64,000 nt of DNA from Escherichia phage vB_Eco-B1.1, in the sequence record ON871820. One strand, 5' to 3'. Each line of letters opens with the position of its first letter. The first letter of the stretch is position 1. This document shows, one piece after another, positions 31,453 to 31,931 of the stretch. Both the position numbers and the translations under genes were made by a program. The notes under the pieces were generated by a model, which searched no databases, was not told the origin of the DNA, and saw nothing but the letters and a program-made list of their open reading frames with translations.

Positions 31453-31712
31453 CTTTTGATGAATTTAAAAATGTTATGATGAGTCAGCATTTTGAATGCG
31501 AAGTAAAAGATGATATTGGGCATAAAGAAATTATTGAATATTGGTTTGAACCGTTAGAGGTTGAAGATAATTGTATTAAAAAGGTTACAGTCTGCACTGA
31601 CTGGGCTGTATCTTTTAACTTCAACATTTTAGATAATGACACACCTAAATCATTACGAGATATGGCTGTATCTTGTATTAAGGATGCATACTGTGAAGTT
31701 TTCGACATTTGA
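31449..31712 (+). CDS. hypothetical protein (46.2-like position)
   Basis: ATGA overlap with gene 47. Confidence 0.55.
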   Translation: MTFDEFKNVMMSQHFECEVKDDIGHKEIIEYWFEPLEVEDNCIKKVTVCTDWAVSFNFNILDNDTPKSLRDMAVSCIKDAYCEVFDI

Positions 31713-31726
31713 CATTAATGATGAAT
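31675..31726 (+). repeat. direct repeat copy 1 (SD + GTG-AAG + DINDEF codons)
   Basis: imperfect ~52-bp repeat of 31879-31931, core TTGACATTAATGATGAATT identical. Confidence 0.8.
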
Positions 31727-31899
31727 TCATAGCAAACATTGATTATACCGAAGAAGATTCTAGATATGTTGGAATAATTTATATTACATCAAAAACAGCA
31801 CAAGGTGTTGTTTGCATGGCTGAATTTGATGAATACTTTTTAGATTATGATGATATGATAGAATGGTCTAAAAGATACATTAAAAGGAATCTTTTGTGA
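31693..31899 (+). CDS. hypothetical protein, GTG start
   Basis: SD AAGGA 8 nt before GTG; N-terminus V/M-K-F-S-T-F-DINDEF duplicated at the endonuclease start. Confidence 0.45.
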   Translation: MKFSTFDINDEFIANIDYTEEDSRYVGIIYITSKTAQGVVCMAEFDEYFLDYDDMIEWSKRYIKRNLL

Positions 31900-31931
31900 A
31901 GAATTTTAAACTTGACATTAATGATGAATTT
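31879..31931 (+). repeat. direct repeat copy 2 (at HNH endonuclease start)
   Basis: see copy 1. Confidence 0.8.

Follow-up and report, generated by a model that had tools for sequence, protein, structure and literature searches.

A repeated gene start in T6-like phages as the probable left junction of a homing endonuclease cassette at the 46.1/46 site

The 47-46 interval and its repeated gene start

We analysed a stretch of 64,000 nucleotides (nt) from Escherichia phage vB_Eco-B1.1 (sequence record ON871820), hereafter the window, and focused on a short repeat at the start of an open reading frame (ORF) for a predicted HNH endonuclease between genes 47 and 46. The window is that of a T6-like Tequatrovirus and presents 98-99% identity to ECML-134, T6, PP01 and others across 47-46. 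Five genes are found in this interval in the order 47, 46.2, 46.1, HNH, 46, all on the + strand. Gene 47 (30433-31452) is followed by 46.2 (31449-31712, 87 amino acids [aa]; Pfam T4_Y03C, E 2.6e-43) and by 46.1 (31693-31899, 68 aa, GTG start; DUF5487, Pfam E 4.5e-50 over residues 1-66), both of which bear the same names in the annotations of T4 and PP01. The HNH ORF (31896-32750, 284 aa) was assigned to the Mob-like homing endonucleases from its match to PHROG 655 and its similarity to MobD, and its GTG overlaps the TGA stop of 46.1 (GTGA). Gene 46 (32766-34448, 560 aa), which encodes an SbcC-like recombination nuclease subunit, restarts downstream in the same frame as the HNH ORF.

A repeat search of the window identified two 45-nt copies (+ strand), one at the start of 46.1 (31692-31736) and the other at the start of the HNH ORF (31895-31939). 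These copies are identical at 35 of 45 positions (78%) and lie 203 nt apart from start to start. Each opens at TGTGAAG, i.e., at a GTG-AAG start (GTG 31693 and GTG 31896), with a Shine-Dalgarno (SD) sequence of the AAGGA type upstream, and the SD parts of the two copies can be aligned only with an indel of 1-2 nt. Both copies contain the exact 19-mer TTGACATTAATGATGAATT, which occurs in the window only at 31709-31727 and 31912-31930. This core is offset by +16 from both GTGs and specifies D-I-N-D-E-F as codons 7-12 of both ORFs. A previous reading of the letters alone (hereafter the sequence-only reading) had described a duplicated start region here; the duplication is real and its two GTG-AAG starts are in register, although the spacing of 204 bp that was given is measured as 203 nt.

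Starts of the form (A/G)TG AAR followed by A/T-rich codons are common among phage genes, and two AT-rich starts might resemble each other by chance. From the base composition of the window (A 0.34, T 0.31, G 0.19, C 0.15), we roughly estimated the probability that a given 17-mer recurs within +/-300 nt to be of the order of 1e-7. Besides TTGACATTAATGATGAATT, the exact repeats of at least 19 nt in the 64 kilobases (kb) consist of a single promoter-like family, and the in-register placement of the copies, 203 nt apart, also argues against coincidence. The repeat is not due to chance, an explanation whose probability is practically negligible. PP01 presents the same repeat as the window, and the HNH copy of T2 carries one substitution (GAC to GAT); this divergence in one copy indicates that the two copies are not being homogenised.

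An 870-bp insertion within gene 46

Phage T4 lacks the HNH gene and presents the order 46.2-46.1-46. The window is identical to T4 through 31913 and again from 32784, so that it contains an insertion of 870 base pairs (bp) relative to T4 (31914-32783, + strand), located between codons 6 and 7 of gene 46 and with a boundary that is ambiguous by a 9-nt repeat. The GC content of the insert is 28%, against 33-35% in its flanks. In T4, gene 46 starts as ...ATTAAAAGGAATCTTTTGTGAAGAATTTTAAACTT|AATAGAGTAAAATAT..., i.e., GTGAAGAATTTTAAACTT|AATAGAG, with a GTG that shares bases with the 46.1 stop. The window retains this native gene 46 initiation region at 31879-31913 (+ strand): the SD AAAGGA, GTG 31896 and codons 1-6 (MKNFKL; GTGAAGAATTTTAAACTT at 31896-31913) are identical to T4. 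This alignment indicates that the endonuclease took over not the start of 46.1 but that of its downstream neighbour, gene 46. The first 17 nt of the insert (GACATTAATGATGAATT, 31914-31930, + strand) are identical to 46.1 codons 7-12 (31711-31727) and are absent from this position in T4; we interpret them as the likely remnant of a 46.1 5' end. The second copy of the repeat is composite and consists of the gene 46 start followed by these 17 nt.

The likeness of this start to that of 46.1 (SD, TGTGAAG and 12/18 nt in codons 1-6) already exists in T4. The sequence-only reading had proposed that the endonuclease captured the initiation region and first ~12 codons of 46.1, and had expected relatives lacking the endonuclease to carry a single copy. 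Part of this proposal survives: the HNH ORF has no start of its own and uses resident sequence, and 17 nt of its leader (codons 7-12) do appear to come from 46.1. The SD, GTG and codons 1-6 belong to gene 46, however, and endonuclease-free genomes already show both look-alike starts, whereas the exact core is specific to the insertion. If the whole 46.1 start, from the SD through the start codon to codon 12, had been copied as a single block, this would account for the 45-nt similarity including TGTGAAG and for the SD ahead of both starts. Yet the T4 gene 46 start matches the SD, GTG and codons 1-6 at 100%, 46.1 matches only 12/18 positions of codons 1-6, and all endonuclease-free relatives have these sequences. 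The first 35 nt of such a block are refuted by the T4 alignment, and we regard block copying as extremely unlikely.

At the right end, the TGA of the HNH ORF (32748-32750) is followed at 32751-32783 (+ strand) by a 15-nt spacer, ACAATTGGATACAAA, and a replacement gene 46 start, ATGAAATCATTTAAACTT (MKSFKL), with its ATG at 32766. The true flanking duplication is that of the gene 46 start: GTGAAGAATTTTAAACTT at 31896-31913 and the variant ATGAAATCATTTAAACTT at 32766-32783 are identical at 13 of 18 positions. This imperfect repeat includes the 9-nt exact direct repeat TTTAAACTT, whose left and right copies (+ strand) occupy 31905-31913 and 32775-32783, and the replacement segment includes ATGAAATCATTTAAA, which is identical to the gene 46 start of phage vB_EQ1. 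The 3' end of the cassette thus hands gene 46 a new spacer, a new ATG and a variant of its first six codons. Gene 46 now relies on a weaker SD-like GGA about 9-11 nt ahead of the new ATG. Gene 46 restarts in the frame of the HNH ORF, from which it is separated by the TGA plus five sense codons, and readthrough of this TGA would yield an HNH-gp46 fusion. In a natural variant (P0019, 290 aa), one T is lost in the tail and the TGA overlaps the gene 46 ATG, a coupled layout as in phages F2 and SEA1 (described below).

Other types of insertion were considered and rejected. A transposon-type target-site duplication does not fit because the 9-nt TTTAAACTT belongs to a longer, imperfect duplication (18 nt) of the gene 46 start. 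The repeat search revealed no terminal inverted repeats around the insert, and the HNH gene is the sole ORF within it. The Rfam search of 31000-33500 detected no intron family at E up to 1, and an intein or intron carrying the endonuclease is ruled out by the TGA end, by the restart of gene 46 at its own ATG and by the lack of an Rfam intron. Finally, the HNH 3' tail might be a remnant of a 46.1 3' end, as suggested by comparison with vB_EQ1 (CTTCATT...GGATACA...ATGAAATCATTTAAA) and by the HNH tails of F2 and SEA1 (EF-MRKNL and EF-DRRIL) next to 46.1 tails (YIKRNLL and FIRREYI). These segments are too short for testing and were kept as a hint only.

Identity and expression of the HNH ORF

The HNH ORF matched PHROG 655 "homing endonuclease" (E 7.8e-45) and PHROG 12434 "HNH endonuclease" (E 4.4e-15), and tblastn found it to be 30% identical to T4 MobD over residues 47-281 (235 residues, E 2e-11). 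Residues H50, H51, N67, H76 and H80 are invariant in an alignment of six relatives, which is consistent with an HNH motif. Strands at 48-52 and 68-72, followed by a helix, are predicted by an AlphaFold2 model built on a shallow alignment (pLDDT 53). A sequence profile search of the PDB with the HNH ORF returned no nuclease. Outside the 46.1/46 site, the nearest relative at the DNA level is a paralogous Mob gene (annotated as mobC or homing endonuclease) with 74% identity to 32027-32191, the region of the HNH motif. This paralogue is found in Yersinia phage PST, Ozark and others, about 40-42 kb into the genome.

Upstream, an in-frame TAA occupies 31881-31883, and downstream the first in-frame ATG is found at codon 37 of the HNH ORF, which leaves GTG 31896 as its only possible start. 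The ORF therefore lacks an initiation region of its own and uses the SD, GTG and six codons of gene 46, with a start that is positioned for coupling to 46.1 termination (GTGA). The start of gene 46 is annotated inconsistently across Tequatrovirus: several records use an internal ATG (codon 14, ...NIM) and not, as in T4, the GTG overlapping the 46.1 stop (RB10 and Ozark, loci 892-934; Yersinia phage vB_YenM_P8, hereafter P8, locus 2847). We also detected an 8-bp GC-rich hairpin, GGAAGCAC/GTGCTTCC, at 32036-32056 on the + strand inside the HNH ORF, at the codons for EAHHVLP. Its predicted energy is -15.6 kcal/mol (z = -4.6 relative to shuffled sequences); no U-run follows it, and it is absent at the corresponding codons of F2. 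This hairpin could attenuate expression of the endonuclease.

The location of the repeat at two translation starts might instead reflect a cis element under selection, such as an operator of translation, an element of the mRNA or a site that the endonuclease binds or cleaves. A precedent exists in T4, whose intron endonucleases bind operator-like versions of their homing sites located close to the genes that encode them (PMC2988022). The nucleotides are, however, conserved neither in other lineages of 46.1 (P8, AATCTTGATGATGAATTT; vB_EQ1, ATCCATCGTCATGAATTT) nor in the HNH relatives, and T2 tolerates a change in one copy. Neither start presents significant RNA structure (z +0.22 and -0.90), and the folds predicted for these two starts, for the replacement gene 46 start and for that of T4 did not differ from shuffles. 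No TATAAATA late promoter was found within 9 kb, a sigma-70-like scan gave no more hits than expected from shuffled sequence, and no Rfam match was obtained. These results make a selected cis element very unlikely.

Presence, absence and decay across Tequatrovirus

The distribution of the HNH gene was examined across about 500 Tequatrovirus records. About 71-76 of them carry the gene, with the same two junctions; tblastn recovered it at >=95% amino-acid identity in about 70, and DNA identity is at least 98.8% except in the poor Ac3 record. The sites of about 430 records are empty, about 68 being of the T4 type and about 360 of a second type (class B, defined below); these junction-type counts are approximate and include repeated T4 records. 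The locus is a presence/absence polymorphism at one fixed site between conserved genes, in genomes that are otherwise nearly the same.

Relatives of intermediate divergence were not recovered. No HNH relative between 60% and 90% identity was found with tblastn, and a word-indexed protein search returned only the same 90% cluster and distant Mob proteins. A locus search of IMG/VR gave none, and one of metagenomes gave only 17 distant Mob-like matches. Forty members of the 90% cluster were read, and the seven that were inspected all begin MKNFKLDINDEF where the N-terminus is present.

Several carriers present damaged copies. The HNH gene is frameshifted in T2, where it is annotated as two ORFs (T2 locus 801-1653), and tblastn splits it in two in T2, RB51, Ac3 and vB_EcoM_G2133. 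RB68 also has two annotated ORFs, with a truncated protein (P0002) of 208 aa. The gene is therefore decaying in T2 and several other carriers.

Relatives in other genera and the 46.1 slot

HNH relatives at about 42-44% amino-acid identity are always found in the 47-46 interval. F2 and PNJ-9, which are Mosigvirus-like, present the order 47, 46.2, HNH, 46, with the HNH gene in place of 46.1. The F2/PNJ-9 HNH start, ATGACGAAGACTGATTATGAAA (MTKTDYE), shares 22 identical nt with the 46.1 start of the HNH-less vB_EQ1 (MTKTDYEIHRHEF...) and then diverges; the HNH gene retains the first seven 46.1 codons as an in-frame fusion. Gelderlandvirus SEA1 presents 47-HNH-46, and CGG4-1, which lacks the HNH gene, carries a 46.1 homologue of 68 aa in the same slot; of 46.2 and 46.1, this genus has 46.1 only. 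In a third Gelderlandvirus, CF-SP2, the HNH gene is split into two ORFs. We infer from these arrangements that the family normally resides in place of 46.1.

Genes 47 and 46 are adjacent and overlapping in Jiaodavirus (Klebsiella phage KP1, locus position 900) and in several other genera of Tevenvirinae, with matches that include Serratia, Cronobacter and Yersinia phiR1-RT phages. Genes 46.2 and 46.1 thus count as lineage-specific additions at a hot spot. The start of 46.2, ATGACTTTTGATGAATTT (MTFDEF, 31449-31470), resembles 46.1 codons 5-12 (ACATTTGAC...GATGAATTC, TFD-IN-DEF, 31705-31727). Paralogy of 46.1 and 46.2 as the source of these common TFD..DEF starts was dropped, since BLASTP gave no match between them; the likeness may be due to chance or to another old exchange of starts.

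The relatives also inform the direction of copying. The ...DEF motif is native to the 46.1 family (FNLDDEF in P8, YEIHRHEF in vB_EQ1; the DUF5487 profile also matches from residue 1 to 66), and DINDEF-like residues are not found in the HNH relatives, whose bodies begin to align at about residue 13 of the window protein. Copying therefore went from 46.1 to the HNH ORF. The residues that come next, SEED.KSY, resemble the WEG..YLNF of the HNH relatives and are thus native to the HNH gene. Homology between 46.1 and the HNH ORF past codon 12 was rejected, because it is the first 12 residues that account for the BLASTP alignment (E 5e-4).

Exchange between gene starts has occurred in this interval in another phage. 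The 46.1 start of P8, ATGAAGACTTTTGAA... (ATGAAGACTTTTGAATTT..., MKTFEF), shares 11-12 nt with the start of its own gene 46, GTGAAGACTTTTAAG... (GTGAAGACTTTTAAGCTT), and the rest of P8 46.1 is about 95% T4-like. In P8, the starts of these two genes have thus exchanged sequence in register, independently of the event in the window. Just after gene 46, P8 also carries another homing endonuclease gene, which is unlike the HNH gene and is encoded on the opposite strand (these P8 features lie at 2599-2900 and 4493-5209 of its locus).

Such exchange could also have acted late at the window's locus. The cassette might have been inserted at gene 46 codon 6/7 with another 5' end, and 46.1 codons 6-12 might then have been copied into its leader by ectopic gene conversion or template switching. 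In favour of this, the two starts, 203 nt apart, are alike in T4 itself, an in-register copy would also be expected, and the 11-12 nt shared by the two P8 starts imply that sequence has been exchanged between them. Against this, there is no homology to the right of the tract (TTTTTAATAAAGG versus CATAGCAAACATT), the tract is present in all 70-odd carriers with none seen to lack it, and the one-base divergence of T2 argues against ongoing homogenisation. Later conversion also leaves aside that occupation of the 46.1 slot is usual in relatives of two other genera and that 46.1 codons are kept in F2 and PNJ-9. We consider it rather unlikely.

Alternatively, unequal crossing-over might first have doubled the 203-bp unit, giving a chimeric second 46.1 (gene 46 codons 1-6 followed by 46.1 codons 7-68) whose body was later replaced by a homing cassette. 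The product would be the same in-register chimera; P8 shows that a 46.1 with a gene-46-like start is possible, and the HNH gene replaces 46.1 bodies in F2, PNJ-9 and SEA1. This route needs two rare events plus a donor cassette beginning at 46.1 codon 12/13, however, and no genome with two 46.1 copies was encountered among the about 500 Tequatrovirus records, in which no search was aimed at such genomes. Tandem duplication followed by replacement is decidedly unlikely.

A diverged patch at the 5' end of gene 46

We aligned the gene 46 region of the window, PP01, T2, T4, RB10 and Ozark after removing the insert in silico. Thirteen consecutive variable sites from +18 to +63 separate the window, PP01, T2 and T4 (class A, NRVKYKNIMSVGQNG) from RB10 and Ozark (class B, NRVRYQNIMSVGGNP). 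Between -85 and +17 of gene 46 the six sequences do not vary, and only scattered mosaic single-nucleotide polymorphisms are found elsewhere. The class A patch, nt +18 to +63/64 of gene 46, occupies 32783-32829 of the window (+ strand) and is linked to the cassette: all HNH carriers, about 74-76 records in the junction-type counts, are class A, and none with a class B patch was seen among the Tequatrovirus records. Similar contrasts between HNH+ and HNH- genomes are observed within three genera, namely Tequatrovirus, the Mosigvirus-like phages (F2 vs EQ1) and Gelderlandvirus (SEA1 vs CGG4-1). Identity over nt 1-66 of gene 46 is 0.71, 0.80 and 0.76, respectively, and over nt 67-350 it is 0.99, 0.97 and 0.95. 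By analogy with known cases, a linked patch is the signature expected of intronless homing, where the carrier allele would differ at the recognition region and travel with the endonuclease gene. This locus would thereby explain the 46-nt mosaic patch that divides Tequatrovirus into two classes at the 5' end of gene 46.

The foreign-looking tract of carriers extends from +1 (ATGAAATCA...) to +63. T4 is resident from +1 to +9 and carrier-type from +18 to +63, and its junction corresponds to the carrier sequence minus everything between the two TTTAAACTT copies. This match makes cassette loss a slightly more economical origin of T4-type empty sites than independent polymorphism. The T4-type empty allele with a carrier-type patch is common (T4 and about 68 records). 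Transfer of the patch across genera along with the HNH gene was not demonstrated: the window and SEA1 are 0.82 identical over nt 1-66 and 0.70 downstream, but the patch of T4 is just as similar to that of Jiaodavirus KP1 (0.82), a phage without the HNH gene.

A proposed origin of the 17-nt identity

We favour the view that the repeat is probably the left junction of a free-standing Mob-type HNH homing cassette which sits in the first codons of gene 46, was relocated from 46.1 and was spread by homing. The T6-type cassette would once have lain inside a T4-type 46.1, replacing its body and keeping 46.1 codons 1-12. A single recombination, or double-strand-break repair with a genome bearing an intact 46.1, would then have paired the 46.1 and 46 starts in register. 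The resulting join would be ...GTGAAGAATTTTAAAC-TT-GACATTAATG..., with the crossover in the common TT of a 19-nt stretch with 13 matches (12/18 in codons 1-6). The product would keep an intact 46.1 with the cassette behind it and a leader made of gene 46 codons 1-6, 46.1 codons 7-12 and the HNH body. By analogy with characterised homing endonucleases (PMC2988022, PMC2993671, PMC2790892), the protein may nick or cut an empty allele near the gene 46 start in mixed infection, and repair would copy the cassette together with the gene 46 patch. The class A patch would then be the co-converted and presumably cleavage-immune target allele. The repeat itself would have no function today, except as a short homology able to delete 46.1 again. 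Relocation is suggested by the arrangements of F2, PNJ-9 and SEA1, by the exact codon register and by the exchange of starts in P8.

Several observations weigh against this relocation. The predicted donor, 46.1(1-12)::HNH without a 46.1 body, is absent from 50,697 phage records, and exact or degenerate pattern scans did not find the donor junction in IMG/VR or in metagenome contigs. It was also absent from the 40 members read of the 90% cluster, seven of which were inspected directly. A synthetic 130-nt donor-junction query against all phage records gave only two-piece matches, which correspond to the window's own arrangement. The homeology between the starts is weak (12/18 plus the SD) and not clearly above chance for two AT-rich phage gene starts, so that the case for guided recombination lies mainly in the exact register. 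The junction between 46.1 and the HNH body follows codon 7 in F2 and codon 12 in the T6 type, which implies that they do not share one inherited junction. As for the protein, no Pfam HNH model matched the HNH ORF at E 0.1, NCBIfam gave no match, the poor structure model (pLDDT 53) leaves the fold unconfirmed, and Foldseek against the PDB returned noise only. The endonuclease activity, target site and homing advantage are putative.

A wider scenario can be put forward more tentatively. The family might be nested in frame in 46.1, borrow host starts and shift its insertion point by in-register recombination between look-alike starts, the 19-mer being the fossil of one such hop. T4 would be an ex-carrier, and codons 6-21 of its gene 46 would be a co-converted scar left after excision through the 9-nt TTTAAACTT repeat. 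If hopping and the past carriage in T4 are true, this locus would be a sequence-resolved case of endonuclease genes reaching new sites and leaving mosaic patches in essential genes after their loss.

Other features of the window

Upstream of gene 47 lie a-gt (29054-30256) and 47.1 (30296-30436), both on the + strand. GC-rich hairpins with a UUCG loop, AAGGGCTTCGGCCCTTTA, occur three times (26617, 30256 and 36662); the one at 30254-30273, just after a-gt, has a terminator-like score. Four near-identical segments with the core TGGTACTATACAACTATC, up to 26 nt exact, were found at 8985-9010, 12930-12955, 14366-14388 and 41518-41543. Each has GTTTAC about 17 nt upstream and an SD and ATG downstream, and these segments look like T4-type early promoters with a conserved leader. 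They make up the promoter-like family that, besides TTGACATTAATGATGAATT, accounts for all exact repeats of at least 19 nt in the window.

Comparison with known systems

The closest parallel is with mobA-E of T4, which are free-standing homing endonuclease genes of the Mob HNH family (PMC2988022) and of which MobE has been studied (PMC2790892). The HNH gene is related to these genes in sequence (its protein is 30% identical to MobD, and its DNA over the HNH motif is 74% identical to "mobC"), and like them it is inserted between conserved genes, varies in presence among close relatives and has decayed by frameshift in some phages. It also shares with mob and seg genes a poor initiation region of its own and a start overlapping the stop of the upstream ORF, as described for mobE (PMC2988022). 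It differs in its site, the 46.1/46 junction, for which our limited literature search found no study. In addition, its frame opens with codons of two resident genes (46 and 46.1), and the displaced gene is re-supplied with a duplicated variant start. Table 5 of Petrov et al. 2010 (PMC2993671) assigns a single "other HNH" to each of T2, T6 and RB51/RB70; it is probably this gene.

Inteins and transposon duplications share some properties with the insertion, whose length is a multiple of 3 (870 bp) and which lies within coding sequence with a 9-nt direct repeat at its bounds. Unlike these elements, it shows no splicing, intein motifs, intron RNA, transposase or terminal inverted repeats, and its 9-mer is part of an imperfect 18-nt copy of a gene start and not a staggered-cut duplication. 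T4 is also known, from the classical rII work, to delete and duplicate sequence between short direct repeats. The left junction (J1) resembles such events in falling in a 2-nt identity inside a 19-nt homeologous stretch, as does the T4-type empty site, which equals the carrier minus everything between the TTTAAACTT copies. Here, however, what was relocated or removed is a mobile gene and not simply host sequence, and the change may have been an insertion or a deletion. SegF at gene 56 and SegG at gene 32 reportedly undergo intronless homing with co-conversion of flanking markers (work attributed to Belle et al. 2002 and Liu et al. 2003). Intronless homing with co-conversion is also described for SegB in the T4 tRNA cluster (PMC2330249). 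The present locus shares with these systems a sharply bounded divergent patch (gene 46 nt 1-66) that is fully linked to the endonuclease gene in three genera. It differs in that an empty allele with a carrier-type patch is common.

Much of this is already known: RefSeq annotates the gene as "homing endonuclease", and overlap with an upstream ORF, lack of an own start and linked target polymorphism are all described patterns. What is new here is the leader derived from two resident genes, the variant start returned to gene 46, the habit of occupying the 46.1 slot and the 46-nt patch that splits Tequatrovirus. How free-standing homing endonuclease genes are expressed without harm to essential neighbours, and by which route they reach new sites, has largely been inferred so far, and translational control of mob genes is listed as unaddressed (PMC2988022). 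The 47-46 interval offers a natural series of states: empty (T4, RB10), with the cassette replacing 46.1 (F2, PNJ-9, SEA1), with the cassette behind an intact 46.1 and a chimeric leader (T6-like phages), and decaying (T2 and others). This series displays the capture of a start codon, the re-supply of a start to the displaced gene and a linked patch in the recombination nuclease gene 46. It also carries a warning for annotators, as the GTG start of the HNH ORF is historically that of gene 46. These results fit the established paradigm of homing, and they refine existing knowledge of such genes without overturning it.

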